Shown here one piece after another: positions 2,341 through 64,000 of a stretch of 64,000 nt of DNA. Position numbers and translations under genes: made by a program. Numbering within the stretch: the first letter of the stretch is position 1; the number at the start of each line of letters is the position of its first letter. The notes beneath the pieces were generated by a model. The model saw nothing but the letters and a program-made list of their open reading frames with translations. It did not search any database and was not told where the DNA came from. The DNA comes from an uncultured Muribaculaceae bacterium (GTDB lineage Bacteria; Bacteroidota; Bacteroidia; Bacteroidales; Muribaculaceae), in contig CAMWJS010000003.1 of assembly GCA_947174635.1 (NCBI GenBank), positions 37,597-101,596 on the forward strand, read 5' to 3'.

Positions 2341-2341
2341 G

Positions 2342-6748: not shown

Positions 6749-6821
6749 GGCGATTTAGTGTAGTGGCCTAGCACGCCACCCTCTCACGGTGGAGACCCGG
6801 GTTCGATTCCCGGATTCGCTA
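6749..6821 (+). tRNA. tRNA-Glu (anticodon CUC)
   Basis: Cloverleaf folded by hand. Acceptor stem is ggcgatt/attcgct (one T-T mismatch). D-arm is gtgt-agtggccta-gcac. Anticodon stem ccacc/ggtgg has loop ct-CTC-ac. The variable loop is 4 nt and the T-arm is ccggg-ttcgatt-cccgg. No encoded CCA. Confidence 0.8.
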
Positions 6822-6829
6822 CTCGGCAG

Positions 6830-6861
6830 GCAGTTGTCAATTTTGACAACTGCTTTTTTTT
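6830..6861 (+). terminator. Rho-independent terminator after tRNA-Glu
   Basis: gcagttgtcaa (6830-6840) pairs with ttgacaactgc (6843-6853), followed by an 8-T run (6854-6861). Confidence 0.75.
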
Positions 6862-6942
6862 ATTTACACCAGTTTATACATATCGGTGTATGTATGACAT
6901 AAATAACATTCTCATTATTTACTGATTAAAAACAGATAGGTT

Positions 6943-39884: not shown

Positions 39885-39922
39885 ACAGATAATGCTGTTA
39901 TACTCTCAACGTGGATACAATA

Positions 39923-40498
39923 ATGACATTTTTAGCCGGGCATGCAATCGAGATAGTCGGTCTTGTGCTCGGCTTGTTTTATCTTTATTTTGAATATCAT
40001 GCAAGTACCTGGGTGTGGCTGTTCAGCCTGCTGATGCCTATGGTATCGATGGTAGTATATTTCGATGCCGGATTATATGCCGATTTTTCAATCAACATAT
40101 ATTATCTGCTGGCGTCGGCCTACGGGCTTGTCAAATGGCGAGGTACAAAACGTAAAAAAGGAGTGGAGATATCTCATATCTCCACTCCGACAGCGTTATG
40201 CTCGACAGGCGTTATGCTTATTATCTGGCTTGCGATATACGTCCTGCTTCATAATTTTACCAATTCGACGGTTCCTGTAATGGATGCGCTGACCACAGCC
40301 GTAAGCATTGTCGGCACGTGGATGCTCGCACGTAAATATATCGAGCAGTGGATTGCATGGATATTGGTCGATGCCGTATGTGTAGGATTGTACATCTACA
40401 AGGATATTCCATTCTATGCGGCGCTTTATGCCATATATACCGTTGTGGCAATCTTCGGCTACAGGAAGTGGCGCAGGCTGATGTCAGCGCAGGCTTAG
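39923..40498 (+). CDS. PnuC-family transporter (probable thiamine transporter PnuT type)
   Basis: About 191 aa from ATG 39923; the track uses GTG 39911. It has seven hydrophobic helices and the PnuC-like W..W..D pattern (IEQWIAWILVDAVCVGLY). It sits downstream of the TPP-regulated receptor. Confidence 0.8.
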   Translation: MTFLAGHAIEIVGLVLGLFYLYFEYHASTWVWLFSLLMPMVSMVVYFDAGLYADFSINIYYLLASAYGLVKWRGTKRKKGVEISHISTPTALCSTGVMLIIWLAIYVLLHNFTNSTVPVMDALTTAVSIVGTWMLARKYIEQWIAWILVDAVCVGLYIYKDIPFYAALYAIYTVVAIFGYRKWRRLMSAQA

Positions 40499-44903: not shown

Positions 44904-44927
44904 GAGATAATAACTGAAAATCAACGC

Positions 44928-44969
44928 CATAGGCGGTATGTCCTGATAATAAAGGATATACCGCCTATG
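44928..44969 (+). terminator. ppdK terminator hairpin (last recognisable host feature before the mobile element)
   Basis: cataggcggtatgtcc (44928-44943) pairs with ggatataccgcctatg (44954-44969) with one mismatch. Confidence 0.65.
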
Positions 44970-45118
44970 TTAGTCTTAAAGGAATTGTGCATTTGTACAC
45001 GATAGTTTGCACTAATGAACAGTAAAAATTCAACAAAATCTGCACGTTTCTCAACAGGCCAATTCAACATGAATTAAACAATAAACAAACATGATAAATA
45101 ACTAATACAATACAAGAT

Positions 45119-46615
45119 ATGGCAATACTGACTGTCTGCGTAAACAAGCAGCGCAAAAGAAAGGATGGTTGCTACTCGGTTTATATCCGGGTAGCCCACA
45201 ATGGCAAATCTGTCTATATACCCACCGACAAGGTTGTAGGTACTAAGGGGCTGTCCTCCTCAATGGAGGTAATAGACCCGTTCGTCTTGAAACCTCTGTC
45301 ATCGCAAATCGTGACATGGCTCGATACCTTGAACCGGCATGACATCTCAGCGTGGACAGCACGACAGGTCGCGGATTTTCTAAAAAACCAGAATGAGGAT
45401 TTGATATTCTCGGACTATGCCCGCAAACACATTGACCGACTAATCGACAACGGACAGGAGCGCAGCGCGAAGAATTACAAACTTGCACTTCAGCACATGG
45501 AGCGTTACTTTGGTACCACCAACGTGAAATTTGCGCAGCTCACATCCGTGAACGTCAACAAGTGGTTAGCCACGTTGAGCGGGACGGCGAGGGCAAAGGA
45601 GATGTATCCTGTGTGCATCCGTCAGATATTCCGTGCCGCCATAGACGAGTTGAACGACTACGACAACGGCATTATCCGGGTAAAGACTAATCCGTGGGGA
45701 AAGGTCAAGATACCTGCCGCCGACCGCCCCAATAAGAAAGCAATCACCGCCGAGGCTTGCAGGGCTTTCTTCGCGGCCCCGTTGCCTGAAAGCAAGATGA
45801 CCGACCCTCTGCCGGAGTTGGGACGTGATGTTGCAATGATGTCATTGTGTCTGGCCGGTATGAATACAGTTGACATTTACAACCTGCGCAAAGAGGACTA
45901 CCACGGAGGCATCATCCACTACAAGCGGGCCAAGACCACCAGAAGCCGCCGCGATGACGCATACATCGAAATGCGGGTGCCGGAGGTGATAAAGCCTTTG
46001 TTCGACAAATACAGAGCTGATTACCATACCGACCGCCTGTTTCGTTTCTGCGACCGCTTTTCGACCTCGGACAGTTTTTGCGCCAATGTCAACACAGGCA
46101 TCAAGAAAATCTGTGAGGAAATGGGAATGACCGACCCGAAAAAACGTTACTGTGTCTATACGTTCCGTCACACATGGGCGACCACAGCGCAGAATGACTG
46201 CGGGGCCACACTCGCGGAGGTTGGCTTTGCGATGAACCACTCGCACGGTTACACAATCACTCGCGGATATGTGCGCCCCGACTTCACACCGGCATGGGAG
46301 TTGAACGAGAAAGTGATTGATTTTATCTTCTTCAGCGATGCGACCTCGCGGCGCGTGGCGCAGGAGAAGCCGGAGGAAGAAGGGCTGTTCCGTCTTTCGC
46401 CAAAGATGCTCATCCGTGCGGCGGCATTTTTTCAAGGCAAGTGTCTGGCCAACTTTGAGGACATCGGCTATTCAAACATCGAGGAAGTGACAAAGGCTCT
46501 TGTTGCACAATTCCCTGTTGATATTCCCGACCGCTCGATGGTACAGTTCAAAATCGTGAACCTCGACAATGGCAAGGTTCACGTTTATGAGCATCAGAAG
46601 GGCAAGGGATTTTAG
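45119..46615 (+). CDS. Tyrosine-type site-specific integrase (Bacteroidota phage-integrase family) with ~90-aa C-terminal extension
   Basis: 498 aa. The N-terminal arm-binding-like region (CVNKQRKRKDGCYSVYIRVAHNGKSVYIPT) and the catalytic box YTFRHTWATTAQ ... HSHGYTITRGYV fit the family. 114 aa follow the putative catalytic Tyr. Confidence 0.88.
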   Translation: MAILTVCVNKQRKRKDGCYSVYIRVAHNGKSVYIPTDKVVGTKGLSSSMEVIDPFVLKPLSSQIVTWLDTLNRHDISAWTARQVADFLKNQNEDLIFSDYARKHIDRLIDNGQERSAKNYKLALQHMERYFGTTNVKFAQLTSVNVNKWLATLSGTARAKEMYPVCIRQIFRAAIDELNDYDNGIIRVKTNPWGKVKIPAADRPNKKAITAEACRAFFAAPLPESKMTDPLPELGRDVAMMSLCLAGMNTVDIYNLRKEDYHGGIIHYKRAKTTRSRRDDAYIEMRVPEVIKPLFDKYRADYHTDRLFRFCDRFSTSDSFCANVNTGIKKICEEMGMTDPKKRYCVYTFRHTWATTAQNDCGATLAEVGFAMNHSHGYTITRGYVRPDFTPAWELNEKVIDFIFFSDATSRRVAQEKPEEEGLFRLSPKMLIRAAAFFQGKCLANFEDIGYSNIEEVTKALVAQFPVDIPDRSMVQFKIVNLDNGKVHVYEHQKGKGF

Positions 46616-46833
46616 AGTTTTGTCAAGTCAATGGAAACGAAGCGACCGCCGGCCGATGCCAAAGAGTTGATTTCACCGTATGTGAGGGTGCCGCTTTCTA
46701 CAATGATTGTCAGCACCCCATTTTCCATAGCCCTTGCCTTATTGACAAGCGAGAGAAGCTCGGAGTATCGCAGAGCGGAGCCGATAGTGACGTTTGCAAC
46801 GCCGGCAATGTTTTTGAGTTCTGAGAATGTCAT
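46612..46833 (-). CDS. Small hypothetical protein, paralog A
   Basis: 73 aa, convergent with the integrase and overlapping it by 4 bp. It aligns without gaps to the neighbouring ORF (shared ..LTxxEIxxLxxxGGxxV....K). Confidence 0.5.
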   Translation of the reverse strand: MTFSELKNIAGVANVTIGSALRYSELLSLVNKARAMENGVLTIIVESGTLTYGEINSLASAGGRFVSIDLTKL

Positions 46834-46853
46834 GATTTATTTTGATTTTGGAT

Positions 46854-47081
46854 TCAGTCGGAAAATTTCATGTCGGGGAACGCAACATGTGGGCCTCCTT
46901 TTTCACAGAGCAATTGAATTTCCGCTACTGTAAGGCGTTCTGTTTTCAGCAGACTTATTTTGCCACCGCCTTTGCAGGCTGCTTCAACGAACGATTGCGC
47001 CTGACCGAATGGCATGTGGTCGACCTCGAGATTGAACTCCCCGCCCATTGAGAGGGCGTACTTCATTTGTTCTTTTGTCAT
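46854..47081 (-). CDS. Small hypothetical protein, paralog B
   Basis: About 75 aa from ATG 47081 (MTKEQMKY..); the track ORF extends to 47111. A TAtcTTTG -7 box on the minus strand (complement of 47109-47116) lies 28 nt upstream of this ATG. Confidence 0.5.
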   Translation of the reverse strand: MTKEQMKYALSMGGEFNLEVDHMPFGQAQSFVEAACKGGGKISLLKTERLTVAEIQLLCEKGGPHVAFPDMKFSD

Positions 47082-47108
47082 GAACTGTTGTATTTGAATT
47101 TTCAATTG

Positions 47109-47116
47109 CAAAGATA
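47109..47116 (-). promoter_or_regulatory. -7 promoter box (TATCTTTG on minus strand) for the small-paralog genes
   Basis: caaagata on the plus strand is TATCTTTG on the minus strand, an exact TAnnTTTG match. Confidence 0.45.
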
Positions 47117-47353
47117 ATCCGCAGTTCCGTCTTTAAAACGTTATCTTTTGAGCCATACCAAATCGGCGTGGCTCTTTTTCTTTTTCGCGCAACTTTTTCT
47201 TTTTCTCCCTCCTTCCATCTGATTGGCGAAGCCTCAAAAAAAAGAAAAATTTTCCTCGCGTGTGTACGTACGCGCGCATCGACGAGAATAATAACTCTTT
47301 AGAGTTATTTTCTTTTATAGAAATACGTTAGTATTTCTTTTTATCAAAAGAAA

Positions 47354-47484
47354 GGTTTCGGAAGAAATGCCCTTTTCTTCCGAAGTTTTCCGAATTTATA
47401 GCAATAACTTCCGAAATAATTGGAATAACTTCGGAAGAAATAGCAATAACTTCGGAAGTTATTCTAATAAATGGGGAAGGAATT
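47354..47484. repeat. Iteron array 1: six TTC(S)GAA palindromic cores phased 21-10-21-21-21 bp
   Basis: Cores start at 47357 (TTCGGAA), 47378, 47388, 47409 (TTCCGAA), 47430 and 47451 (TTCGGAA). The array ends with ataaatggggaaggaatt. It is homologous position-by-position to array 2, which lies 223 bp downstream. Confidence 0.9.
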
Positions 47485-47576
47485 TTACGCGAAATTTGCC
47501 CGAAAACAGCCATTTTTGAGGGGTAAAAATGACTCTGTTTTTACAATAAAAAATCAAAAAGGGAATTTATGCCCTT

Positions 47577-47707
47577 AATTTCGGAAGAAATAGGGATTAT
47601 TTCGGAAGTTTTCGGAATTTATTCGCATAATTTCGGAAAGAATAGCAATAACTTCGGAAAGAATCGGCATAACTTCGGAAGTTATTGCTATAAATGGGGA
47701 AGGAATT
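47577..47707. repeat. Iteron array 2: six TTCGGAA cores with identical 21-10-21-21-21 bp phasing
   Basis: Cores start at 47580, 47601, 47611, 47632, 47653 and 47674. The 21-bp unit consensus is TTCSGAARNAATNGCAATAAC. The array ends with the same ataaatggggaaggaatt tail. Confidence 0.9.
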
Positions 47708-47720
47708 CCGAGAATGAAAA

Positions 47721-47745
47721 ATGCCGAGCGAGATGCCCGGCATGT
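47721..47745 (-). terminator. Terminator-like hairpin downstream of the 133-aa gene
   Basis: atgccg (47721-47726) / cggcat (47740-47745). On the minus strand the hairpin is followed by ttttcatt. Confidence 0.45.
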
Positions 47746-47775
47746 GGTCTAAAAGTAGAGAAAAATAGACTGAGG

Positions 47776-48177
47776 TTATTTGTCGTTTTCGGCGGCGAGC
47801 TGCGCAAGGCGCTGCTCTATTGTGGTGGTGATGTCGCCCGACAACGACACCTCGGCTGACACGGACTGCATCTGTGGTGTGTGGTAGCGCAGCAGTTTTT
47901 CGTGGATGGTTGCGCGGTCTTTGGCTTCCATCATCATCATATCAACTTCGAAATCGGAAACGACAAGCGGATTGCCGTCGGCGTCTTGCAGCATGACGGT
48001 GTTGTATAGTTCGCCCTCTTTGGTCCTAAGCTCTAATGTGCGTGGTGTGCCGTCCCCATTCGTCTGTGGCCGTGGTGCAAAGTAGGCCATGGAATGGGCG
48101 CGTAAATGCTCTTTGAGGGGACTGGGTTTGTTGGGAGTGCCTTTTTGTCGGCCTCCGGTTTTTCTTCCTTGTGCCAT
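47776..48177 (-). CDS. Hypothetical small basic-N-terminus protein (candidate DNA-binding/regulatory protein of the element)
   Basis: 133 aa. The N-terminal motif MAQGRKTGGRQKGTPNK is a basic GRxKGxxNK-type motif common in phage and mobile-element DNA-binding proteins. A TAccTTTG -7 box lies 27 nt upstream on the minus strand. Confidence 0.6.
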   Translation of the reverse strand: MAQGRKTGGRQKGTPNKPSPLKEHLRAHSMAYFAPRPQTNGDGTPRTLELRTKEGELYNTVMLQDADGNPLVVSDFEVDMMMMEAKDRATIHEKLLRYHTPQMQSVSAEVSLSGDITTTIEQRLAQLAAENDK

Positions 48178-48203
48178 GTGACTAAAAAGTTAAAGATATG
48201 AAG

Positions 48204-48225
48204 CAAAGGTAGGGGTTTATCTTTG
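48204..48225. promoter_or_regulatory. Back-to-back divergent -7 promoter boxes
   Basis: caaaggta (48204-48211, which is TACCTTTG on the minus strand, serving 47776..48177) and tatctttg (48218-48225 on the plus strand, serving the 48259 operon). Together they form the inverted repeat gcaaag..ctttgc. Confidence 0.55.
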
Positions 48226-48258
48226 CTCCGTAATTATAACTTTTTAATTCCTTAAGAC

Positions 48259-48801
48259 ATGATCGGCAGCATAATCGGCGGAGCGATGCAGGTGGGCGGC
48301 GCAATCTTTGGCGGCATATCGGCGAGCAAAGCCATGAAGAAAGTGAAAAAGAACATACAGGAGCAGCAGCGCAAAAACCAGGACTGGTACGACCGCCGCT
48401 ACAACGAGGATGCGACCCAGCGTGCGGATGCCCAACGCATATTGGCAAAGACCGAGGAATCAATCCGCAACCGCAACCGTCAGGCGGCGGGAGCTCAGGC
48501 TGTCATGGGCGGCACGGAGGAGAGTGTTGCGGCGGCTAAGGCAGCCAACAATCAAGCTCTTGCGGATGCCACATCTCAGATTGCAGTCGCCGGAGAACGG
48601 CGCAAGGATGCCATCGAGCAACAATATCTGTCGACTGACCAGCAGCTTCAGGCGCAATTGAACAACCTTGAAGTCAATAAGGCAAGCGCCATATCCCAGG
48701 CCGTGCAGGGCGTGGCGAAAGCCGGAGCCGGCATGGCGCAGCCGATTGATGGCGCTTATTATGCATATCCGGACGGCAAGAAAGGAGGGGGCAATGCCTA
48801 A
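48259..48801 (+). CDS. Hypothetical protein with N-terminal glycine-zipper membrane segment and Q/A-rich coiled coil
   Basis: 180 aa: MIGSIIGGAMQVGGAIFGGISASKAMKK, then NQDWYDRRYNEDATQRADAQ and Ala/Gln-rich helices. It is the first gene of the plus-strand operon. Confidence 0.65.
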   Translation: MIGSIIGGAMQVGGAIFGGISASKAMKKVKKNIQEQQRKNQDWYDRRYNEDATQRADAQRILAKTEESIRNRNRQAAGAQAVMGGTEESVAAAKAANNQALADATSQIAVAGERRKDAIEQQYLSTDQQLQAQLNNLEVNKASAISQAVQGVAKAGAGMAQPIDGAYYAYPDGKKGGGNA

Positions 48802-49867
48802 CAACAATCAGCAGTCAATAGTAGAGCGGCCTCAGGCGGAGAGGATGCAGGCTCCGGTTACAGAGTCCGAGGCTCATATTGTGCCGTCTCCGACAAATAC
48901 CGGGCAGCATGCGCAGAGAGACGAACCTACCGGAGTAGAAAATGTGTCGGTCGACAATCAGCCGCAGGTGAGAAACCCGGAAAATTGGCAGGAGGCGGTC
49001 GACGAACATTTTTCAGACTGGAAAGAGACTCCTCGGGCTGGAAGCATGCAGGATGTCGTGGATTATCTGGAAGGGCGTATGAGCGCAATACACATCCCGA
49101 CAAAGGAGGAACTTGAAAAGGAGCGCCGCCGCAAGCGTGCCGAGGGTTTAATCTCGGCTATTGCGGACGGGGCGAGCGCTATTTCCAATCTCGCGTTCAC
49201 CACTCAATATGCCCCCAATATGTACAAGCATGAAAACTCAATGACCGCAAAGTGGCAGGAGCGCTACGACAAGTTGAAGAAGGAGCGCGAGGCAGATGCC
49301 GACCGATATTACAACTATGCGCTGACAGTAGGCAAAATCAAGGAGGCTCAGGAAGCCAAAGAGTATCAGCGTGGCCGCGATGCGCTTAAGGACAGCATAA
49401 CCGCCGCAAAGGCCGAACACGATGCAAGACTTGCGGATATCAGGTATAAAGTAGTGGCTCAGAAATTGAGCGCGGCCGAAGCGGCCGAAGCCGAACGCGC
49501 TGCGACACGGGAGCTTGACAGAAAAATCAAGGAGGCGAAACTGGAGGAAATACAATCGCGGACAAACAAGAATAATCGTTGGCAACCCTCGGGTGGCAAA
49601 ACGGGGCAGTTCACTGTGTCGCGCATTAATCCACAAACGGGCGAGAAAGAATACAAGAGTGACTTCAGGTCAGAACCATCGGCAAAGAACTTCGCTGCGA
49701 CGCATTCGGATGATGGATGGGTATATGAAACCATACCCACGACAAGCACAACCACGAAGCCTAATAAATGGGGTAGGACACAGACAACCACAACCGTAAG
49801 GGATACATCGACACCCCGCAATGAAAATAACTCAGAAAAGAAGAAAAAACCCAATCCAATGGATTAA
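48794..49867 (+). CDS. Hypothetical coiled-coil protein
   Basis: 357 aa from the ATG at 48794, which overlaps the upstream stop (aATGccTAA). The track ORF starts at 48668 inside the upstream gene. The protein has a charged helical core (KEELEKERRRKRAEG.., EAAEAERAATRELDRKIKEAKLEEIQ) and a Thr-rich, basic C-terminus. Confidence 0.6.
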   Translation: MPNNNQQSIVERPQAERMQAPVTESEAHIVPSPTNTGQHAQRDEPTGVENVSVDNQPQVRNPENWQEAVDEHFSDWKETPRAGSMQDVVDYLEGRMSAIHIPTKEELEKERRRKRAEGLISAIADGASAISNLAFTTQYAPNMYKHENSMTAKWQERYDKLKKEREADADRYYNYALTVGKIKEAQEAKEYQRGRDALKDSITAAKAEHDARLADIRYKVVAQKLSAAEAAEAERAATRELDRKIKEAKLEEIQSRTNKNNRWQPSGGKTGQFTVSRINPQTGEKEYKSDFRSEPSAKNFAATHSDDGWVYETIPTTSTTTKPNKWGRTQTTTTVRDTSTPRNENNSEKKKKPNPMD

Positions 49868-49870
49868 GTG

Positions 49871-52800
49871 ATGACAAACGACAACAAGCAAAAACTATAT
49901 AACGCCCTTTCTCGGGATTATGAGTTGGGGACATTCGAGAAATTCTGTACGGATATCGATGACAGTGTAAAGCGACGTAAATTATTTGATGCTGCTTCAC
50001 AGGACTACGAACTGGGCTCTTGGGAAAGCTTTTCCAAGCAGTTAGGTTATACCGATTCAACACAGGAGGCTCCTCTAATTTCATCAATAGTCAGAAAAGT
50101 GGAGGAACAGGCAAAGCAGCATGTCAGTGTTACGTCGGCCGCTTCGGGGAATGCCGGCGCCAACGTATCGGCCGAGGCTTCCGAGCAAGCCGCGCCTGCA
50201 GAGGCCGCGCCGGTTGATCGGGGGCAACAGTCCTGGATGCCGTCCGTGCAGGATAGGGTCCGTGCATCATATCAGATGCAGACAGTTGCGGACGGGTTGA
50301 GCCACCGTGCGGATGAAGGCGCAGCAAAAGTGGGGCGTATCAATGAACCGTTGACCGCCGAGGGCAGGGAGCACAGGAAGCAGAAAGAGATGGAAGCGCG
50401 GATGGCCGGAGCGCCAACAACGTTGCTGGGTCTGACGGGACCGTCTAAAGCGAAAGCGGATGAAGAAAAGAGCTCTGCGCCGACCGAGAAAGCGGAGTTG
50501 CGTCCTGATGTCATGTCGCCTGTGCCGTATGGCGTGGAGTATGTCGACGGCAAGGCTGTTACCAAATGGCTGATGCCCGACGGCAGCGTGACAACGAATA
50601 TGGCTGAGGCCGACGCAGTTGAATATACCGCAAGGCAGCAACGACTTCATGACACCTATCTGAAGAATACAAAAGATATAAGCATAGACATCCCGAAGGA
50701 GAAGTCTATACGTGTAGGCGTATCTGAGTCTTACGGCAAACCTGTTATAATTTGGCGGTTGCCGGATGGTAGTCTTAAAAAAAGCTATGCAACGCCCGAT
50801 GATGAGAAATTCATTAAGGAAAATCAGGAAAAGTTTGATGAATTTGGCGGAAATTTAATCTCTTATAAATTTAATCAGGAGGCAGCAGATATCGTACAAC
50901 CCAAAGCGAAAGAAGCAGCGGAACAAGCGTGGAAAGCAGCAGAAGCAGCTTACGGAGAGAAGATGGAGTACAATCGAAGGAATTCGAACATCTGGTTGAG
51001 TTCAGCGGGAAATAGTACGGATGCCGCCTCAATTAAGCAGCTGGAGACTATTGATAATTTCACTGACAGGCTTACCACTCATGATCTGGATGCTCTGATG
51101 GATGCGGCATGGTCCAACCTCGGTGAGGCAGGGCAAAAATCTCTCATCGATGATTGCTATAAGATATTGCAACGTCAAAATCCTGAAACAGACAAGATTG
51201 CTTTATACAATCTTGCTAAAGATTATGCCCGTCAACAGTCTGATAAATCGCTATATAATCTTGCCGTAGAGAAAAACATGCCGAAAAATGGTCTTGACTA
51301 TTTTATGCGTAAAATTAGTGACATGAATTTTGTTACCAATTTAGGCAAGGGAATTGCTGTCAATCGTGTGAAGAAAACCGGCGACATGGCAGCTTACGAA
51401 GCAGCCAACGAACAATACCGACAGGACGGTCACAAGATACTTGACGTGACCGGCATGGTTGCAGGTTTCGCTTTCGACCCTACGACATGGTTGTCGGCAG
51501 GTGTCGGCGGTGCTGCGACGCGCGGCACAATGTGGCTCGGCGGTCGTTGGATGGCAGGACGCGGCGCAAGTACAGCCGTTAAACAAGCCGCCACGCGTCA
51601 ATTTGCAAACACAATGACAGGTCGCCTTGTCGGTGGTGTTGTCGGAGGCTCTGTCAACTTCGGCACCTTTGAAGGTACCAAGGAATTGGAGAACCAATTT
51701 GCACATGGCGGCCATATAGTCGGGCAGGATGAAACAGGTCGATATATCAACGAAGGCTATTCTGCATCAGCTGTAGGAGGTCAGGTGCTTCACGGTCTCG
51801 GCATGGGTGCAGCCATCGGTTGGCTCGGTCCCGTTACAGGCAACGTATCCGACAAACTTGTCAGAGCGACAACAAGCACATTGGGCAAGGTCGCCACTCG
51901 CGCGGGTATCTATACGGGTGCCACAATTGCTGAGGGTACAATTTTCTCTATCCCCGAATGGATAGAGGGTGGGCGTGACGGCTTCGATGTGTGGACTGAC
52001 AACATGGCCATGATGGCCGGTTTCAAAGCTAAGCACATGGTAAAGAGTGCCGGTGGTATCCTGAGAGACCTCAAAGCATCTTTTGAAAGCCCCTCCAACG
52101 GAAGCAAGAACCGCTTGAACTTTGAGAGCTGCCTGCGGCAGCGCATGGATGCGCCATCTGACGGAGGTCTTGCACTGACAAAGGATGAGCAGGCCGAGCT
52201 GCAGCGTTATGGCTATGACCTGCGCGACCTTGTGGAGAGTGCAGAGCGCACCGGCAACGCCAAAGAGGGCGGTATTATCGCACAGAACGCGCCCGAAATC
52301 GTCAGCCGACTTACTGATATGGTAACCGATCCGCGTGTCAGCGAAGCGGCAAGAGCTAAGATGTATTACTACGCTACAGGCCGTAAGCTCCCGATGTCAA
52401 CCGTGATGCGTGGCGAACTGTTTGAGGACGGCAACGGAGGCTTCGTTGTAGAATCGCTGGGTGCCAACGGTGTCATCACCTCACGCTCATTTACGAATCG
52501 CAAAGCCGCCGACCTCGAATTGGAGCGCATCAGACGACAGTCAGAACTCAATCAACTTGAACTTGGTGAGCGGTATCAGCCCATTGCAGACTTTGAGAGC
52601 CGCATGATGGAGGCGAGCCGCAGAGTGGCCGCAAATCATGGTTGGAATCCTGTTGATGTATATAAGACCTGTGAAGATGTCCTTGATTCATATGTGCGTG
52701 GCAACAATAAAGAGTTGTCGGACGTGCAAAAGAATATATACAACAAGATACTTGCCGAGTTGGATAAAATCGAGGTATCAGATTTAGCGACCGAGAAGCG

Positions 52801-58800: not shown

Positions 58801-61800
58801 GGCCGATGAATGGCTTGCTGCCAATGCAGAACGACTGGAGACAGAGCGCAAGGCTCATCTTGATCAGAAGCGCAAAGTAGTATATTTTAAAAACACCGAC
58901 GGAGAACGTCAAGGTGTAGACTACCGAGGCGGAGAGGATGCGACGCCGGAGATGTTTGGCGAGACATTCGGGTTCAGGGGAGTGCAGTTTGGCAACTGGA
59001 CTAACAATGCAGACCGTCAGGCGGCATTAAACCAGGCGTATGATGCGCTGATGGATTTATCAAATGAATTGGGTATCACACCGCGAGCGGTGTCGCTTGA
59101 CGGAGAGCTTGGGCTGGCGTTTGGAGCTCGAGGGACTGGGGGAGCGACAGCGCATTATGAACCGGTGGAGGTTGTAATTAACCTAACCAAAACAAAGGGA
59201 GCCGGAGCGTTGGCGCATGAATGGTGGCATGCTGTTGATAACTTTTTGTCGCGCAAGGCCGGTGTGGCCATGGGATATGCTACAGCACGAAACGGATTGG
59301 AAGGCATGCGTCCTGAAATAAGGGAAGCAGTGGCTGAACTGATGGACGCTTTAGATAATTCCGCCTATGCCCGTCGCAGCCGTGACAAAGGAGATTATTG
59401 GGGGCGACCTACCGAGCTTGGTGCGCGACTGTTTGCAGCATGGCTTGCGGAGCGGATGAAAGAACGGGGTGTTGAAAGCCCGTTCCTCACTACAGGACTG
59501 AGCGAAGCGGCATGTGACATGTATCAGCGCTTCAACTATATTATGTATGAGATGCGCGAACGTGATAAGGCAGAGATAGAAAATCGGGAGCCTGGCATTA
59601 TGTCGCGTGAAGAATTCAACAAGTTGCCGGAGTCACTGCATGGATATCCATATCCTACAGCTCAGGAGATAGAAGATTTCGGCGGTCATCTTAGCACTTT
59701 GTTTGGCGCCATGTCAGAGAGGGAGAAGGAGAGCGGCAGCATTGCGAATGAGCGAGGCGGCAGATACAAGAAGCTGCGGTCGACAACTGCCGGCATGAGT
59801 CTTTTTGACTGGGCGGATGCCGAGGAAATCCGACACCGACATAGTAAGTCGGCTGATGAGAAGGCATTGACGGCAGAGGTAGCCAATAATGCGCTCGACG
59901 AATATGCCGAGGCTTACAATAATTATCTCGACCGATGGGAAGATCTTGAAAGGCGCAAAGCGGAGGTCGATAAGGACAGCATGGAGGCACAGGGATTGCA
60001 GGAAGCCATAGAGCAGGAAGAGAGAATGGCAATCGAGGCGCGCGAGCGGCTTATTGAAGCGTTGAGCGATTATTATTTGCGGGACAATACACCCGAAGAT
60101 ACCCGACGAATAGCCCGCGACATGGCGGCACGAGTACAGGCTGAGGTCGAGATACGTCGTGACCGCAACCATATATTAAGTGATATATTAACCGGAGGAG
60201 GTGGAGTTGAACCGATTGACGGAAAGCCGGAGCAGGCAGAAGCAAAGCAGGTAAAGACAGCAGGGGGCAATATCAGTTATAATGCTCTTGGACATTTGCC
60301 TGATGCCAAAGCAGGAGAGTTTGCGTATGTAGAGCGACAGTTCAGCCGCACGGGAGACTTTTTGTTTACCGGTAACGGAGTCATCAAAGATCGAGGCGAT
60401 GTGGCGTATCTGTTCAAGGCGCTGGAGGATTATTCGATTGAGCATGTGTTTGCAGCATTCGTCAAGGATGGCAAAGTCAAGGTGTTGCATATAGGGATGG
60501 GCGGACCGACATCGAGTTTTGCCGATCTCGGAGCGATAAGAGCAGGTTATGATGCCTTTGGTGCGGATGCAGTTTATCTGGTGCATAACCATCCGTCGGG
60601 AAACCTGTCGGCCAGTGTGCCTGACATGAGGCTGATGAAAACGCTTGAGGCTGCGTTTGGTGACGAAGTGGCAGTAGGCGGTATCATCATAGACACAACG
60701 TCGGGGCGCTACACTACTTTTGGTGGCACAGGTGAGACCGGTCGATATGATATGAAGCAGAACGGAGGTGAAGATGCGGTTGACGTCATGCGGTTTGATG
60801 GCGTTGACCGAAGCGCCGGCAGAAGCGAAAGCGTTATAATAGCCAACTCGGCCGATATTGCCCGATACGTATCAGAGCGTCGACTTGGGGCAGGTGACAA
60901 GATAAGTTACCTTGTATTATCAAACAGGAATGAGATTGTAGGCAATTTCCATACTGACTATGATAAACTTGATGCTTCGGGGCTTGCGGAGGAGATAGCG
61001 AGTGTTACCACCAAGTACGGAGGTACGCGTGCTGTGGTTTATGGTAATGTCAAAATCAATAAGGCTCGTGAACTGAGTGCGGAGGTATCGAGACTGAGTC
61101 TTGGTGCCATCAAGATGCTTGACGCTATAGAGGTGACGAATGGCATCAACCGCAGCGCCAATGATGACGGCCTGTTGTATGAGCCGGGCAGCGAGTTCTC
61201 AGATACGCAGAATGGAGAGAAGCGCTACCGCGAACTTGAAAATGACGCCCGCCAGCAGGAAATGGCGCAGACCTCGCCGGAGGCCAAAGGTGCCCACGTA
61301 GAAAAGCTGGCGAATAAATTCAATACTCCTATTCGGATTGTCAATGACATCAACGAGCTGAGGAGCGAGAATGCCGAGCAGCAGGAGCGCATGCGACGCA
61401 GCAAAGCTTTCTATGTATCGGAGACCGGAGAGATTACGGTCGTACTACCCAACAACACAACTGTGGAGGATGTAGCAGAATCCGTGCTTCATGAGGTCGT
61501 GGCGCACAAGGGACTGCGGGAAATGATTGGAGAGGAAAACTACGATGCTTTCTGCGATGAAGTTTATAAACACCTCAAGGGTATTTTAAAGCGGCAGATC
61601 GATAAGGAAACTGCACGTAGCTTCATGCGAGAGCCGGAGAAAGGCTACGAATATCATCGCCGTGTAGCTGTAGATGAATTGTTCGGACGCTTGAGTGAAA
61701 AGGGGTTTGAGGATTTCACCGAGCCTGAGCGTGGCATCTGGAAGAAACTCAAAGCAAAAGTGCTGGAGGCAATCAACAAGTTCCTCGGTTCGCTGAAACT

Positions 61801-64000
61801 GCCCAAGTGGGTGAAACTCGGTGATAACGAACTTCGCTATATACTGTGGCGCAGCCACGAGCGATTGCGCAACAAGGATTATGTCGATATGGCCCGCGAT
61901 ATAGCCAAACGCGAGGAGTTGGGGTTGAGAAGCAATGAGGCGGTCAGAGAGCGGAAGAGTGCAGAGGAGGTGACGGCAGACAGAATAGTGAAGACGTTTG
62001 ATGAGGCAATCTCGGGAGACTTAAAAGGTAAGCCTGTAGAAGTGGGCCGGTTGACAAAAGAAGGAAAAGAGTATCTTGAAAAACTGTCGGGAATAAGGAT
62101 GAAAGAGGATGTTTCGTTCGTTCTCAATCCGTCAGACCTGGTTCATATATACCGTCGCCACTACGGTGATAATGAAAAGGATGTGCGCAATATACCATTG
62201 ACCAAAGAAGATATCAGACAGATGTCTGAAATTGTGTCAACACCCGACCGCATTGTATATGGAAAAGAAGCAGATGGTAATCAGCGTAATATGTTCTTCT
62301 TTCTAAAAGAAGCCGTAGACGGAAGCTACAATCTCATGGAGGTCTATTCCGACAGAAAAGGGAATCTGACAGCAAAAAGCTTCTTTAAAAGCAAAGAGGG
62401 CGTATCCCAACGTGTAATGCTACTCAATGAGTCCTCTACACTTACGTCCGTAACGGATGGGGCAACCCTCTCAGATGCAGCAAAGTTACCAAAATTCTTT
62501 GAGAATCCAACAATTGCAGAGGAAGAAAGTTTTGAATATCGTTTCCGCGATGGTGAGACCGGCGACATCTGGAAGGATCAGAGCGTGGGATTGGAAGAGC
62601 GTATTACCAATGCCGCCATACGACTGAGCAACAATCATAGCGGCGACCTGAGCCTGCGCAATGACGCTCAGAAGGCCGTTATTGACAATCTGCAAAGCCT
62701 GTTGCATGAAATGCGTAACCGCCGGGGCACCGCCCGAAGTTTTGTCGGTGCCGACCGCAAGGTAGAAAGTGGCGTTGTCGACGCGATGAACGCGCAGGCG
62801 ATGTTTGACCGCGCCACCGTCAAGCGAGTTTCCAACCTCGCGCGTATCCTCCTGCAGAACGGCTACCTCTCGGATATGACTTCCGGAGAAATGCAGAGGT
62901 TGTTGTCGGCGGTCAAGAACTCTACCGCCATGCACGATATAGCCGACAGTGTGCAGAAGATTATGGACATCATGGTCAATAATCAACTCCGCAATGCCGA
63001 GGGCGCACTGCGTCAACTCCTGTCAATACGTGGCAGCAAGGTTGATGCGAGAGGTGTAGAGGTGCAGGGAGTGCTTGACGTAGAGGGTCAGCGCACAATG
63101 GAGGTGGTGAAGGACGCAATCTCACTCACCGAGGATGACATCACCGACCGCATTGATGAGGCGCTGAACAGAATGAGTGATCCCAACCAAACCATAGCCG
63201 ACAATGCTGCCATTGAGTATGTCGGCCTCAACATGGCACTCGACTACGTTCAGAACATTGCGAACAGTAAAACAGAGGAGAAAACACTTCGTGATGGGCT
63301 CAAGCGAGCCAAAGAAGACAGGGATGCAGGACGCATGACCGATGATGCCTACAAGCAGTTTGTTGAAACCGCCGAGGATGCAATCCGCAAGAATAAGATT
63401 GAACGTGCTGAGGCATATTTCAATCTTGTCGGCAGGTTGTCTGATTCATTACGCGGCAGCATTGAGAATGCCAAGGCTTTCCGCGAGGCGGAGAAAGCCC
63501 GCGTGAATGAGATTCACCACAATGCCAACTCCGACATGGAGGGTAGACCTGCAAACGAGCACCATAAGGATGATTGGAAAGACAAGTTTGCCAACAATGG
63601 TTTCGTTCAGTTCTTTTTTGCGCCCCTCGGTACCTTCGACCAGATACTCCGCGTGTTCGGCAACAAGAGTGCCAATGGCGAGGGTTATCTGTGGAACCGC
63701 TTCATGCGCGGTTGGGTAGATTGCCGCAACAAGGAGTTGCTCGGTGTGAAAGAGAAATACGCGCGTCTGGACGAAAAGGCCGCAGAGCTGTTTGGCAAGG
63801 GCAAGACTTGGGGCAACCTCATCAGAATGGAGGCGAAGATGCCGAAGGCTACCGTTTCATTCTGGGACGGGGATGAAATGCGCGACCATGAACTGACACA
63901 GGGTAACCTGCTCTACATCTACATGGTAGACAAAATGACGGACGGACGCATGAAACTGCGACGCATGGGTATCACAGAGAACGATATTGCCAAAATTGAA
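49871..64000 (+). CDS. Giant polyvalent-type multidomain protein, 5' 4,710 codons (3' end beyond window)
   Basis: ATG at 49871 is preceded by an in-frame TAA (49865-49867) and GTG (49868). I translated this frame manually from 49871 to 64000 and met no stop codon; frame phase was spot-checked by coordinate arithmetic at about ten positions (49913, 55082, 55529, 56189, 57182, 59216, 60584, 61490, 62144 and the final codon ending at 64000). It is absent from the supplied ORF track, apparently because it has no in-window stop. Only short antisense or off-frame ORFs are listed across this 14.1 kb. Confidence 0.9.
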   Translation, partial: MTNDNKQKLYNALSRDYELGTFEKFCTDIDDSVKRRKLFDAASQDYELGSWESFSKQLGYTDSTQEAPLISSIVRKVEEQAKQHVSVTSAASGNAGANVSAEASEQAAPAEAAPVDRGQQSWMPSVQDRVRASYQMQTVADGLSHRADEGAAKVGRINEPLTAEGREHRKQKEMEARMAGAPTTLLGLTGPSKAKADEEKSSAPTEKAELRPDVMSPVPYGVEYVDGKAVTKWLMPDGSVTTNMAEADAVEYTARQQRLHDTYLKNTKDISIDIPKEKSIRVGVSESYGKPVIIWRLPDGSLKKSYATPDDEKFIKENQEKFDEFGGNLISYKFNQEAADIVQPKAKEAAEQAWKAAEAAYGEKMEYNRRNSNIWLSSAGNSTDAASIKQLETIDNFTDRLTTHDLDALMDAAWSNLGEAGQKSLIDDCYKILQRQNPETDKIALYNLAKDYARQQSDKSLYNLAVEKNMPKNGLDYFMRKISDMNFVTNLGKGIAVNRVKKTGDMAAYEAANEQYRQDGHKILDVTGMVAGFAFDPTTWLSAGVGGAATRGTMWLGGRWMAGRGASTAVKQAATRQFANTMTGRLVGGVVGGSVNFGTFEGTKELENQFAHGGHIVGQDETGRYINEGYSASAVGGQVLHGLGMGAAIGWLGPVTGNVSDKLVRATTSTLGKVATRAGIYTGATIAEGTIFSIPEWIEGGRDGFDVWTDNMAMMAGFKAKHMVKSAGGILRDLKASFESPSNGSKNRLNFESCLRQRMDAPSDGGLALTKDEQAELQRYGYDLRDLVESAERTGNAKEGGIIAQNAPEIVSRLTDMVTDPRVSEAARAKMYYYATGRKLPMSTVMRGELFEDGNGGFVVESLGANGVITSRSFTNRKAADLELERIRRQSELNQLELGERYQPIADFESRMMEASRRVAANHGWNPVDVYKTCEDVLDSYVRGNNKELSDVQKNIYNKILAELDKIEVSDLATEKRTRINAKYDVDIDKAIRKEPNRRTEAEQKAIDEYIAELMPRRNSGNGMFDEAGQRLLPAEGEPRDVEDVNYREADETGQTIEHRFKDDYDFVGVEPHKSAEQPLGRAVMKYQDRQVEVLDGRVVMTGDGTMIDCERSEKTIVVRDIATGKVEMVSPEAILSYEGYADEGELLDAPISPESPSVGESVGAESTGAISAAPNYDLYDTFSVNIEGRDRPLPAAVVERDGNTITIWTPEAVNQASAKSRTMRGYLTDLTSADLDAILQRDAEGNPVGYVSANPPQETEARTDLSHTPVDGQGQPKHEEAGSDAAPDVIAGQAQVDEATATADTAEYDRGYEQGLEDAAKADDAWIANLIKIYSQNTPESMPEIMKGRLDAFLYEQQRRAMEAQSVPNPAAPVENGQQTADDGFISIDPAIKPDENGNINIPAPEAQAEPTPLQRIPRDEQGEPILTHESVDADTAWGGAVEFFGSEDDARSYVDAQVKSSEAAITAAEKAVGKVKPTAGMTKYREDLKNARVAVDAAKSTLARWKEIAEVHDRQKAEVEEAKAAENAFKASITQGKAELEHAYEEVKDVPEAVEILRNMEPQSIDEVAAMLLTGSKVLWNDEGVKRGMKSMLGYGEGERKGLFGLFAASKNGGETLERLAEDKMKELCEAYGIEYDNYDALTALTDVLGACRTRGDLHKYIQNRRIAQALQMKDDFVRHVEKEAERMSQEAYHMSVADREAYESQLPDEMKKIDMKDADIVEMNAIFADEIIERQRYEENIRNEQGRADSVLPAGSDVLHGEQADYGGGIPETSAGERRIGGDGGVDRQNGAAPESTPDREQGNVIEEAYQRNVTRYDRTVPATPEAQRSAISRIIDFAKNVRNRVERAVIGGITKRQAKDFADNGIDVDETWVHSFESSAVVHNQGRHGDSRTEERAGQIAITSEDYARIPEILEAYDRVTKSPNRSRSTGNEVIIYEKDFDDGYIYYLEEKRDKRKSLSFQTMYKKKKGTDSSDGLMPVASPSTPTAPPDNLSSSSEGKGINFASDKQTDGVGSYVQPADNKGAQTIQTAVEAASSEVNTEPTEAQKAAGNYKMKHRRVDGYNISIENAKGSVRRGTGADGKPWETTMQNDYGYIRGTEGVDGDHIDVFLSDTPEKGDVFVVDQVNEDGSFDEHKVMYGFPSEEAARAAYLSNYEPGWTGLGEITHVSKDEFKKWINSSRRKTKPFADYKSVRDITNNVKQAIQEILVSDNYRAVVVTDSSGKETYRVLLNKGARKKEWQIKSELHNGHYSSDGYGTLIFSSRNDMEACLDDRDADIDILNKRLLRKDDENRRKKRTEWKASMLEKIKGMSTEDLRHNIELYDKAPDRRHDEEKEVIDAARQELRLRDAAVKDATDDSAEITRLSKKYRSAPIKVVKSIEDIKSDDLSEDTLEEIAGAMEEAETQAIYCKENKKIYIFAGKYQDGELDYIVAHESVHAAVDKLGLRNGEELNYYRKSIAGIFDNEAPAELNKIISEKYAPEDEDEEFLAYTLPWISRNKKRMRKVLEHGEGRLVDFINQLNEEIYGKEEIQSMLSATEERTPTNVHGGRGGQVRGRRGTAGTITGDDSGGDADTGNRQIEDFGEKIAGARKDALSAFAKTIENVSVQSLIELPMSKAFTRPNLRKMVETGAISDEDAILAEAILQGQIYAHRKPALTKRQSSKKAVEEWARATYGGISMLGEILSGDPSRREAAILQYNERLAAELEAANAHVAKMREWNPGKKIEDVKAIPNPIDITRRVLEGIGYHVGDAVKLPLTNIELSSNKQYYIVGSAGKQGALWFKMHHDTLDGAVDTMIMAAKLARGDRDVELPLRQFVTKGVGTPHKELTGKYEVLYFAKDGKTVKSRVFDGKDKAEVFAADSKGLMRELVKYTNDFDAYAIEAINPLTGERHTLRDDFGSRAEASTWIDESYEEANNLALDALYKEMNVESTPRSHYYVESVFRHGKMVGRVVEDDKKNPWRLTKYFESRKEADEWLAANAERLETERKAHLDQKRKVVYFKNTDGERQGVDYRGGEDATPEMFGETFGFRGVQFGNWTNNADRQAALNQAYDALMDLSNELGITPRAVSLDGELGLAFGARGTGGATAHYEPVEVVINLTKTKGAGALAHEWWHAVDNFLSRKAGVAMGYATARNGLEGMRPEIREAVAELMDALDNSAYARRSRDKGDYWGRPTELGARLFAAWLAERMKERGVESPFLTTGLSEAACDMYQRFNYIMYEMRERDKAEIENREPGIMSREEFNKLPESLHGYPYPTAQEIEDFGGHLSTLFGAMSEREKESGSIANERGGRYKKLRSTTAGMSLFDWADAEEIRHRHSKSADEKALTAEVANNALDEYAEAYNNYLDRWEDLERRKAEVDKDSMEAQGLQEAIEQEERMAIEARERLIEALSDYYLRDNTPEDTRRIARDMAARVQAEVEIRRDRNHILSDILTGGGGVEPIDGKPEQAEAKQVKTAGGNISYNALGHLPDAKAGEFAYVERQFSRTGDFLFTGNGVIKDRGDVAYLFKALEDYSIEHVFAAFVKDGKVKVLHIGMGGPTSSFADLGAIRAGYDAFGADAVYLVHNHPSGNLSASVPDMRLMKTLEAAFGDEVAVGGIIIDTTSGRYTTFGGTGETGRYDMKQNGGEDAVDVMRFDGVDRSAGRSESVIIANSADIARYVSERRLGAGDKISYLVLSNRNEIVGNFHTDYDKLDASGLAEEIASVTTKYGGTRAVVYGNVKINKARELSAEVSRLSLGAIKMLDAIEVTNGINRSANDDGLLYEPGSEFSDTQNGEKRYRELENDARQQEMAQTSPEAKGAHVEKLANKFNTPIRIVNDINELRSENAEQQERMRRSKAFYVSETGEITVVLPNNTTVEDVAESVLHEVVAHKGLREMIGEENYDAFCDEVYKHLKGILKRQIDKETARSFMREPEKGYEYHRRVAVDELFGRLSEKGFEDFTEPERGIWKKLKAKVLEAINKFLGSLKLPKWVKLGDNELRYILWRSHERLRNKDYVDMARDIAKREELGLRSNEAVRERKSAEEVTADRIVKTFDEAISGDLKGKPVEVGRLTKEGKEYLEKLSGIRMKEDVSFVLNPSDLVHIYRRHYGDNEKDVRNIPLTKEDIRQMSEIVSTPDRIVYGKEADGNQRNMFFFLKEAVDGSYNLMEVYSDRKGNLTAKSFFKSKEGVSQRVMLLNESSTLTSVTDGATLSDAAKLPKFFENPTIAEEESFEYRFRDGETGDIWKDQSVGLEERITNAAIRLSNNHSGDLSLRNDAQKAVIDNLQSLLHEMRNRRGTARSFVGADRKVESGVVDAMNAQAMFDRATVKRVSNLARILLQNGYLSDMTSGEMQRLLSAVKNSTAMHDIADSVQKIMDIMVNNQLRNAEGALRQLLSIRGSKVDARGVEVQGVLDVEGQRTMEVVKDAISLTEDDITDRIDEALNRMSDPNQTIADNAAIEYVGLNMALDYVQNIANSKTEEKTLRDGLKRAKEDRDAGRMTDDAYKQFVETAEDAIRKNKIERAEAYFNLVGRLSDSLRGSIENAKAFREAEKARVNEIHHNANSDMEGRPANEHHKDDWKDKFANNGFVQFFFAPLGTFDQILRVFGNKSANGEGYLWNRFMRGWVDCRNKELLGVKEKYARLDEKAAELFGKGKTWGNLIRMEAKMPKATVSFWDGDEMRDHELTQGNLLYIYMVDKMTDGRMKLRRMGITENDIAKIE
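51440..52040 (+). other. Gly/Ala-rich hydrophobic (glycine-zipper / TM-like) block inside the giant ORF
   Basis: Translated: VTGMVAGFAFDPTTWLSAGVGGAATRGTMWLGGRW..GRLVGGVVGGSVNFGTF..AVGGQVLHGLGMGAAIGWLGPVTG..AGIYTGATIAEGTIFSIPEWI..NMAMMAGF. Confidence 0.6.
55355..55790 (+). other. Barnase/EndoU/ColicinE5-D/RelE-like (PBECR-type) nuclease-like module 1
   Basis: Translated: ..TWVHSFESSAVVHNQGRHGDSRTEERAGQIAITSEDYARIPEILEAYDRVTKSP..GNEVIIYEKDFDDGYIYYLEE. The H..(G)RHG motif (55529-55549) followed by 'ITxEDyxxIPEIL..xD.V' is the pattern I associate with PBECR domains of polyvalent proteins. Confidence 0.5.
56030..56420 (+). other. Inorganic-pyrophosphatase-like module
   Basis: Translated: GNYKMKHRRVDGYNISIENAKGSVRRG...NDYGYIRGTEGVDGDHIDVFL (DGDHIDV = 56189-56209)...VNEDGSFDEHKVM. 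This parallels the family-I PPase core NYGYI..T...DGDPvDVLV ... DExGExDxK. Confidence 0.5.
57100..57420 (+). other. HEXXH (zincin-like) motif region 1
   Basis: Translated: YIFAGKYQDGELDYIVAHESVHAAVDKLG, with HESVH at 57182-57196. Downstream acidic residues (PEDEDEEFLAY) are possible third ligands. Confidence 0.4.
58950..59500 (+). other. HEXXH (zincin-like) motif region 2
   Basis: Translated: FGFRGVQFGNWTNNADRQAALNQAYDALMDLSNELGI...ATAHYEPVEVVINLTKTKGAGALAHEWWHAVDNF, with HEWWH at 59216-59230. Confidence 0.5.
60350..60700 (+). other. RadC-like JAB/JAMM domain
   Basis: Translated: ..AVYLVHNHPSGNLSASVPDMRLMKTLEAAFGDEVAVGGIIID. HNHPSG-x5-S-x-PD (60584-60625) is the canonical RadC/JAMM metal-binding signature. 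Confidence 0.75.
61400..61860 (+). other. HExxxH-containing conserved module (possible divergent metallopeptidase)
   Basis: Translated: VEDVAESVLHEVVAHKGLREMIGEENYDAF.. (LHEVVAHKGLREMIG = 61487-61531). The spacing is HExxxH, not the canonical HEXXH. Confidence 0.35.
62050..62410 (+). other. Barnase/EndoU/ColicinE5-D/RelE-like (PBECR-type) nuclease-like module 2
   Basis: Translated: VLNPSDLVHIYRRHYGDNEKDVRNIPLTKEDIRQMSEIVSTPDRIVYGKEADGNQRNMFFFLKE (HIYRRHYG = 62144-62167). It has the same H..RHG + LTxEDI..xxEIV..PD.I pattern as module 1. Confidence 0.5.

Follow-up and report, generated by a model that had tools for sequence, protein, structure and literature searches.

A giant polyvalent-protein gene in the left arm of a ppdK-integrated Muribaculaceae prophage related to Bacteroides phages BKO1-TP3 and BS-TP4

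Sequence comparison identified positions 44877-64000 of the window (the whole 64,000-nt stretch of Muribaculaceae DNA analyzed here) as the left arm of a temperate tailed prophage of approximately 64 kb that belongs to the group of BKO1-TP3 and BS-TP4. The best overall explanation, in which we have high confidence, is a tailed prophage of that size integrated at ppdK (pyruvate phosphate dikinase) and encoding a giant protein predicted to be packaged and ejected. The prophage is a new member of a known and abundant group of Bacteroidales temperate phages with a known class of giant polyvalent protein. The main value of this result is corrective, as an apparent new class of mobile element turned out to be an ordinary, widespread and under-annotated Bacteroidales prophage family. 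Its lasting interest lies in the size and placement of the giant protein, one mosaic polyvalent protein to which these phages give about 25% of their genome, and in a module made of iterons and the gene of a conserved 133-aa protein (o133).

Downstream of the integrase, positions 44970-64000 contain six further ORFs, five small (73, 85, 133, 180 and 357 aa) and one giant, as counted in the initial annotation. Searches of this interval against Pfam, PHROGs, NCBIfam and PADLOC identified no excisionase, repressor, helicase or primase, terminase, portal protein, relaxase or coupling protein. The remark that nothing there was recognizable was correct for these functions but not for the 180-aa protein, which matched Pfam T7_gp14. 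A stretch with no recognizable replication, packaging or transfer gene is what would be expected of the element then proposed, neither phage nor ICE, in which an integrase and an iteron origin accompany one giant effector gene. The sequence beyond position 64000, which was to decide the matter, was read from a Muribaculaceae MAG (GCA_029059545.1, contig JAIDVS010000006.1 of 116,418 nt, locus L218) that is 100% identical, without a mismatch, to the final 7,586 nt of the window. On this contig, the giant ORF closed at 5,478 aa (5,479 residues in the gene call), 2,310 nt past the window end, and was directly followed by a portal gene (Pfam P22_portal; PHROG 156, E 1.5e-97) from a family with over 6,800 members at E values below 1e-30. 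A large terminase gene (TerL) came next on the minus strand (PHROG 2, E 3e-17; also terminase PHROGs 24361 and 5989), then a 155-aa gene, a 510-aa capsid protein gene and more conserved phage genes, and the contig stopped about 12.5 kb after the giant gene. The capsid protein scored 24.1 bits with Pfam SU10_MCP, exactly at the cut-off, and was homologous to BKO1-TP3 gp47 (DUF5309).

The terminase, portal and capsid genes, all marks of a tailed phage, were thus present in one element. Because they lie just past the window, the proposal of a novel integrative element is refuted, and we now regard it as highly improbable; what follows the giant gene is the conventional prophage sequence that the initial annotation had itself named as the finding against its proposal. 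A misassembled join beyond position 64000 is very unlikely, given the colinear arrangement of independent relatives. The second possibility raised at the time, that the cargo end of a larger ICE or prophage faces the integrase, was right about the end of a prophage but wrong about cargo. The region to the right of the iterons and o133 is the start of a rightward operon, and its recognizable products (the gp14-like, giant and portal proteins) are virion components.

A tblastn search of GenBank phages with the 180-aa protein returned two records, Bacteroides phages BKO1-TP3 (PQ571269; 64,956 nt, complete) and BS-TP4 (PQ571277; 64,274 nt). Both are cultured temperate gut phages, and their giant gene goes unmentioned in the isolation paper (Gut Microbes 2025, PMC12694917). 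The giant proteins comprise 5,553 aa in BKO1-TP3 (gp55) and 5,391 aa in BS-TP4 (gp3). As in the present prophage, the integrase gene in both phages is followed by a small divergent gene, a gp14-like gene, a gene of 371-393 aa, the giant gene and the portal gene, past which TerL lies on the opposite strand, followed by the capsid gene. Protein identity to BKO1-TP3 was 57% for the integrase (gp59), 67% for the gp14-like protein, 69% for the portal protein, 66% for TerL (gp51), 60% for gp45, 47% for gp48 and 45% for gp49, and every gene compared, in the window or on the L218 contig, had the same order and orientation. This kinship was visible at the protein level only, as megablast of the 19 kb against GenBank phages gave no match. 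The phages differ in their hosts, which are Bacteroides for the two cultured phages and Muribaculaceae here, and in the accessory ORFs beside the integrase. As a by-product of the comparison, BKO1-TP3 gp51 and BS-TP4 gp7, both annotated as "tail spike", were re-identified by PHROG matches as the large terminase, a result with which the depositors' secondary annotation of BS-TP4 gp7 concurs.

Relatives were also numerous among uncultivated viruses. In IMG/VR, relatives of the gp14-like protein were found in at least 259 stretches, and the order ppdK, integrase, (o73), o133, gp14-like gene, 357-aa gene and giant gene recurs across the 80 loci examined. MAGs with related prophages were labeled Muribaculaceae, Duncaniella, Bacteroides, Prevotella, Alistipes, Rikenellaceae and Porphyromonadaceae. 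Pairs of a related integrase and a giant ORF, which the initial annotation had suggested looking for in Bacteroidales and viral sequences, exist both in IMG/VR and in the two cultured phages. That the layout equals that of cultured phages of 64-65 kb, and that so many viral contigs share the gp14-like protein, further speaks against a new kind of element. Quimbyviridae was considered as the family and rejected: the features described for it (Myoviridae-related TerL, DnaG/DnaB) are out of keeping with this phage, and the gp14-like protein had no match among its records.

Several IMG/VR contigs, some with an integrase 85-93% identical to the present one, had no ppdK upstream of the integrase. 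Instead, homologues of BKO1-TP3 gp1, gp4, RecT, gp6, exonuclease VIII, NinB, helicase and repressor were found there. Judged by this arrangement, these contigs are excised, circular genomes in the attP form. Since the early genes lie upstream of the integrase in attP forms, in an integrated genome they are placed at the far right end, beside attR. The early region of BKO1-TP3 also contains a replication initiator, methyltransferases and other genes, and its late region contains a DGR reverse transcriptase with a 2,638-aa target gene as well as lysis genes. When the window was aligned with four attP-form contigs, similarity began at GCGGCGCAGGC (position 44877), 24 nt before the ppdK stop codon, and the sequences upstream of this point were unrelated. 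The border of the element, which had been put at 44970, accordingly lies at about 44877, in the last codons of ppdK, where attP similarity begins.

The attL core region begins with the 27 nt that end ppdK (8 codons and the stop), and the core block as a whole is also present in free-phage attP forms. In BKO1-TP3, the same ppdK tail is found in attP: the last codons (…AAAQAAIEE stop) and the hairpin stand upstream of the integrase. In relatives whose host flank is visible, the target is again the ppdK 3′ end. In 15 of them, a conserved terminator hairpin (TAGGCGG...CCGCCTA) comes after the ppdK stop, then a GTGCA-N3-5-TGCAC motif, three to four direct repeats of a lineage-specific octamer and the integrase start. 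Taken together, the alignments establish that the phage inserts within the ppdK 3′ end and brings along a replacement tail and terminator, a property of the family that is a further by-product of this work. Because attP holds the 3′ tail and the terminator, integration restores ppdK; recombination inside the shared block inserts the phage into the 3′ end of the gene and leaves ppdK intact.

The integrase scored 27.5 bits with Pfam Phage_int_SAM_5, above the cut-off, and 21.7 bits with Arm-DNA-bind_5, a weak match below the Pfam cut-off of 22.6. The repeats of the P′ arm are presumably the binding sites of an N-terminal arm-binding domain of the integrase. The arrangement resembles lambda-type integration at host-gene 3′ ends: there is a tyrosine integrase with a weak arm-binding-domain match, and attP has an inverted repeat in its core, direct arm-type repeats on either arm and a duplicate of the target-gene 3′ end. 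It differs in the target, which is protein-coding ppdK with its terminator rather than a tRNA gene. An exact-pattern search of IMG/VR for a second copy of the att core (attR) returned one attP-form contig only; attR and the early region lie outside the sequence seen for this prophage copy.

The end of the contig 12.5 kb past the giant gene, before attR and the early genes, would also fit a defective or domesticated remnant whose left arm is intact but which has lost excision or particle formation. However, every gene seen is intact, including the 16.4-kb ORF without a stop, and the contig break is more simply explained as a limit of MAG assembly. The integrase and an att site are both present at the element border, and the excised attP form is known from close relatives and from BKO1-TP3; the relatives are represented by attP-form genomes as well as cultured phages. 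We therefore consider a remnant unlikely. The features of the prophage left arm are listed in Table 1.

Table 1. Features at the ppdK-side border and in the left arm of the prophage. Positions are those of the 64,000-nt window; residues of the giant protein are counted from the Met at 49874.
Feature	Position (nt)	Strand	Giant-protein residues	Basis or remark
ppdK (pyruvate phosphate dikinase)	42189-44903			Host gene
attL core region	44877-45000	+		Alignment with attP-form contigs
ppdK terminator hairpin	44928-44969			Within attL core region
Core-type inverted repeat GTGCATTTGTACAC	44987-45000			
P′ arm, four direct arm-type repeats ATTCAACA, TCTCAACA, ATTCAACA, ATTAAACA	45028-45080	+		Read from sequence
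Tyrosine integrase, 498 aa	45119-46615	+		PHROG 1 integrase, E 1e-22
Small ORF o73, 73 aa	46612-46833	-		
Small ORF o85, 85 aa	46854-47111	-		75 aa in the source record's call
Non-coding region with polypyrimidine tract and two iteron blocks	47174-47728			
CTTTTT polypyrimidine tract	47174-47211			
Iteron blocks, 21-nt units with TTCGGAA core	47356-47484 and 47558-47728			Flanking an AT-rich spacer
Terminator-like hairpin of 133-aa gene	47743-47721	-		Terminator scan
Conserved 133-aa protein (o133)	47776-48177	-		
T7_gp14-family protein, 180 aa	48259-48801	+		Pfam
357-aa protein	48794-49867	+		Between gp14-like and giant genes
Giant polyvalent-protein gene	49871/49874-64000	+		Runs off the window
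PBECR3 (first)	55433-55798		1854-1975	
InPase	56015-56416		2048-2181	
HExxH motifs			2437 and 3115	
LPD5	58706-58966		2945-3031	
LPD1	59381-59713		3170-3280	
RadC/JAB	60407-60655		3512-3594	
PBECR3 (second)	62075-62401		4068-4176	

The giant ORF runs for at least 4,708 codons without a stop inside the window and for 16.4 kb in full. A segment scan with Pfam gave 69.7 and 46.7 bits for the two PBECR3 domains, 199 for InPase, 36 for LPD5, 38 for LPD1 and 28.7 for RadC, all above the cut-offs. The protein contains more than the two unrelated conflict-type domains, including LPD, PBECR or InPase, by which a polyvalent protein was defined, and the name polyvalent given to it in the initial annotation agrees with this domain set. 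Pfam recognized no domain in the first approximately 1,850 or the last approximately 1,300 residues, and no gp16-like or lytic transglycosylase domain in the protein. No strongly hydrophobic segment was present, and an AF2 model of residues 3710-4708 (pLDDT 66, pTM 0.33) had no significant match in the PDB. The InPase region matched the C-terminal domain of a phage portal protein of solved structure (9b41_L, E 1.4e-28).

Conservation was uneven along the protein. Compared with the 6,628-aa orthologue of a close relative, residues 348-1520 were 50% identical and the last 1,260 residues 85% identical, whereas the middle was largely replaced. This pattern indicates conserved ends and a variable center. 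The alignment with the giant protein of BKO1-TP3 was limited to the InPase region and a few short stretches.

According to Iyer, Burroughs, Anand, de Souza and Aravind (2017, PMC5512222), InPase, like PBECR2, occurs in phage-type polyvalent proteins only. The same study tied PBECR-containing polyvalent proteins to virion gene neighborhoods, noted that these domains also occur fused to MuF and portal proteins, and argued for packaging of such proteins in the head followed by injection (Iyer et al. 2017, PMC5512222). Conjugative elements, however, account for about 40% of polyvalent proteins, and RadC was found in that class only (PMC5512222). The RadC domain means that the domain set of the giant protein is not purely phage-type, and it would suit the cargo end of a conjugative transposon or ICE with a conjugative-type polyvalent protein. 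We consider this extremely improbable, because no relaxase, type IV coupling protein or T4SS gene was found in 44877-64000 or in the following 14 kb, the InPase is phage-type, and the giant gene lies between a virion-protein gene and the portal gene. The prophage protein shares with phage-type polyvalent proteins the many-domain make-up and a place among the virion genes of a portal-terminase phage; what sets it apart is its size, since the gene for its 5,478 aa occupies about one quarter of the approximately 64-kb genome.

DarB of phage P1, a packaged antirestriction protein that has been studied experimentally, has N6-adenine methyltransferase and helicase domains. Neither domain had a Pfam match in the 4,708 residues of the giant protein inside the window or in its last 769 residues. 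The match to PHROG 10089, which is named "DarB-like", spanned the InPase region only (residues 2020-2205). In the absence of a DarB-type methylase or helicase domain, the "DarB-like" label of BKO1-TP3 gp55 can be read as an analogy only.

The 180-aa protein encoded upstream of the giant gene matched Pfam T7_gp14, a family of internal virion proteins, from end to end (E 3.5e-8, 34 bits against a cut-off of 27). T7_gp14 was also among the precomputed hits of the source gene, and a weak match to the internal virion protein PHROG 805 was obtained. Its N-terminus is glycine-rich and hydrophobic. The gp14 assignment is a matter of the Pfam profile, since hhalign of the family alignment against T7 gp14 gave no similarity (probability 0.1). 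The sole NCBIfam match among the small ORFs, that of this protein to the T3SS translocon protein SctB, was below threshold. The 357-aa protein was found in 76 loci, always between the gp14-like and giant genes. It is mostly low-complexity or coiled, and the family alignment contains one conserved hydrophobic block, ...DGISALSNLYFTTQYAPNMY. It matched nothing in Pfam, PHROGs, NCBIfam or the PDB, its family alignment showed no similarity to T7 gp15 with hhalign, and phmmer searches of the PDB with the 180-aa and 357-aa proteins returned nothing meaningful. Programmed readthrough of the in-frame stop between the 357-aa and giant ORFs was rejected, because in BKO1-TP3 and BS-TP4 the two corresponding genes do not share a reading frame.

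The three genes recall gp14, gp15 and gp16 of T7 in being consecutive, in the rising size of their products and in the whole-length match of the first to T7_gp14. A P22-type portal protein and an SU10-like capsid protein suggest a podovirus-type head, and together with the absence of a tape-measure gene they predict podovirus morphology. Unlike the T7 core genes, they lie upstream of the portal gene and not after the tail genes, and the third protein is four times the size of gp16, with no gp16-like or transglycosylase domain.

From this gene order and domain content, we consider it fairly probable that the 180-aa, 357-aa and giant proteins are head-internal and ejected, and that the giant protein delivers anti-defense activities. 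The giant protein would be assembled in the capsid near the portal, together with the two smaller proteins, and would be ejected along with the DNA at infection. Its PBECR3 (RNase-like), InPase (pyrophosphatase), JAB/RadC and metallopeptidase-like modules could then act on host defenses or nucleotide signals, and the HExxH sites might cut the polyprotein into active pieces. The conserved ends would serve as a fixed packaging scaffold and the variable middle as a set of swappable effector cassettes.

The giant protein might instead stay in the producing cell or the lysogen as a scaffold, an assembly factor, or a defense or toxin protein. [quoted passage not shown] We therefore judge a function inside the producing cell rather unlikely. 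The cultured phages BKO1-TP3 and BS-TP4 would allow a direct test, in an abundant group of gut phages, of the long-standing prediction of packaging and injection for phage polyvalent proteins.

A further, more speculative possibility is that in this phage family the giant protein has replaced the large ejection or internal-core proteins in their function. If packaging and ejection apply, its N- and C-terminal regions may anchor at the portal or form a conduit, with the central cassettes delivered ahead of the DNA. The protein may then be a self-processing delivery scaffold of about 600 kDa for which a quarter of the genome is used.

The iteron arrays noted in the initial annotation do exist, as 21-nt units in two blocks, within a non-coding stretch of 660 nt between o85 and the 133-aa ORF. 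This non-coding region holds 12 of the 22 TTCGGAA/TTCCGAA sites of the 64-kb window. In relatives, the position of the array just past the o133 terminator is kept, whereas its motif and period are lineage-specific: the window and seven relatives have 21-nt units with TTCGGAAG, L015 and L020 have 11-nt units of TTTGGTT, L062 has 11-nt units of TTCCGGAATGT, and yet other motifs occur in L011 and L064. BKO1-TP3 has no iteron array at the corresponding position, and its annotated replication initiator (gp19) and helicase (gp10) sit in the distant early region. These two observations argue against an essential, family-wide origin at the iterons, and their role as a candidate origin is doubtful. Among the 80 IMG/VR contigs, 27 stop within approximately 1 kb upstream of the gp14-like gene and lack the integrase; these ends could be assembly breaks at repeats or, alternatively, true termini of the DNA, for example a pac site.

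The 133-aa gene is divergent from the operon that begins at 48259, and its product, which corresponds to BKO1-TP3 gp58, has a basic N-terminal GRKTGGRQKGTPNK tail. Its homologues form 334 clusters, none of them with a Pfam domain. At L018, where no integrase was detected, the gene still adjoins the gp14-like gene, suggesting that it is tied to the late operon and not to integration. Excisionase, small terminase and regulator were considered as labels for the protein and found unsupported, as its AF2 model (pLDDT 74) had no fold match in the PDB (best E 0.28). Together, the lineage-specific iterons and o133 may make up a specificity module not described before, with a part in the initiation of packaging, in control of the late operon or in incompatibility. 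The combination of such a separate module with a giant protein that works as an ejection scaffold is a speculative picture that we put forward only tentatively.

An Rfam scan of 44800-50000 gave only noise below threshold, and NCBIfam and PADLOC searches with the small ORFs gave nothing above it. The two ORFs beside the integrase, o73 and o85, matched no family in Pfam, PHROGs, NCBIfam or PADLOC and are not paralogues of each other. These accessory ORFs vary between relatives, o73 being present in 8 loci and o85 in 1.

Sequence comparison placed short-period repeat arrays 3′ of the homologue of o133, a 133-aa minus-strand gene, at a position common to many relatives of the prophage. The array motifs differed by lineage, with periods of 21, 11 or 45 nt, and a conserved CTTTTT polypyrimidine tract was present near the arrays. 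No array was found at this position in the cultured Bacteroides phage BKO1-TP3. The arrays may represent a candidate origin, pac site or operator array. Among the 80 related viral contigs (IMG/VR loci), 27 had no integrase and ended in or near the iteron region, no more than ~1 kb upstream from the gp14-like gene (T7_gp14 family); these included L003, L004, L005, L007, L027, L028, L030, L071, L075 and L076. Such ends reflect either breakage of the assembly at the repeats or true genome termini.

The o133 protein carried an invariant N-terminal motif, GxKTGGRxKGTPN, and a second conserved motif, LLRYHxPxM (consensus, LLRYHTPQMQSVSAEVS). Its homologue clusters numbered 334, and neither a Pfam family nor a structural match was found. 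The viral contig L018, in which an integrase was not detected, retained o133 beside the gp14-like gene, and the two genes were directly adjoined by homologues of BKO1-TP3 gp33–gp37. L018 may belong to a non-integrating or rearranged lineage.

Features of the prophage arm and its relatives
Feature	Sequence	Coordinates	Residues
Integrase C-terminal extension	window	46352-46615	412-498
Repeat-array region	window	47174-47775	
o133 (minus strand)	window	47776-48177	
Junction of 357-aa and giant ORFs	window	49865-49876	
Giant protein, N-terminus	window	49874-50050	1-58
Giant protein, InPase	window	56042-56446	2057-2191
Giant protein, RadC/JAB	window	60407-60655	3512-3594
Repeat array	L011	5087-5190	
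Repeat array	L015	5382-5517	
Repeat array	L020	5364-5524	
Repeat array	L062	9112-9203	
Contig without detected integrase	L018 (IMGVR_UViG_3300045988_111028)	1-7700	
gp51, 'tail spike protein'	PQ571269.1 (BKO1-TP3)	37872-39986	
gp7, 'tail spike protein'	PQ571277.1 (BS-TP4)	20340-22436	

The genes labelled as tail spikes in the two cultured phages, gp51 and gp7, are large terminase genes. Close homologues of both match PHROG terminase families, and gp7 carries a structure-based note by its depositor that reads 'Terminase'.

In the window, the 357-aa ORF is separated from the giant ORF by one stop codon and shares its frame, which raised programmed readthrough from the former into the latter as a candidate. 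In BKO1-TP3 and BS-TP4, however, the counterparts of the two ORFs lie in different frames, so that the shared frame appears coincidental and readthrough was rejected. At its extreme N-terminus the giant protein contains a duplicated motif, Y-E-L-G-[TS]-[FW]-E-x-F, and this region matched PHROG 24532 (E = 9.5e-10). The 130 residues at the C-terminus of a phage portal protein of solved structure (PDB 9b41 chain L, 'gp19 Portal') were matched by the InPase domain (E = 1.4e-28), indicating that at least one phage has this domain within its capsid. A RadC/JAB domain also occurs within this phage-type polyvalent protein.

The integrase extends ~90 residues beyond its match to the PHROG integrase profile, and this C-terminal extension is conserved in relatives.
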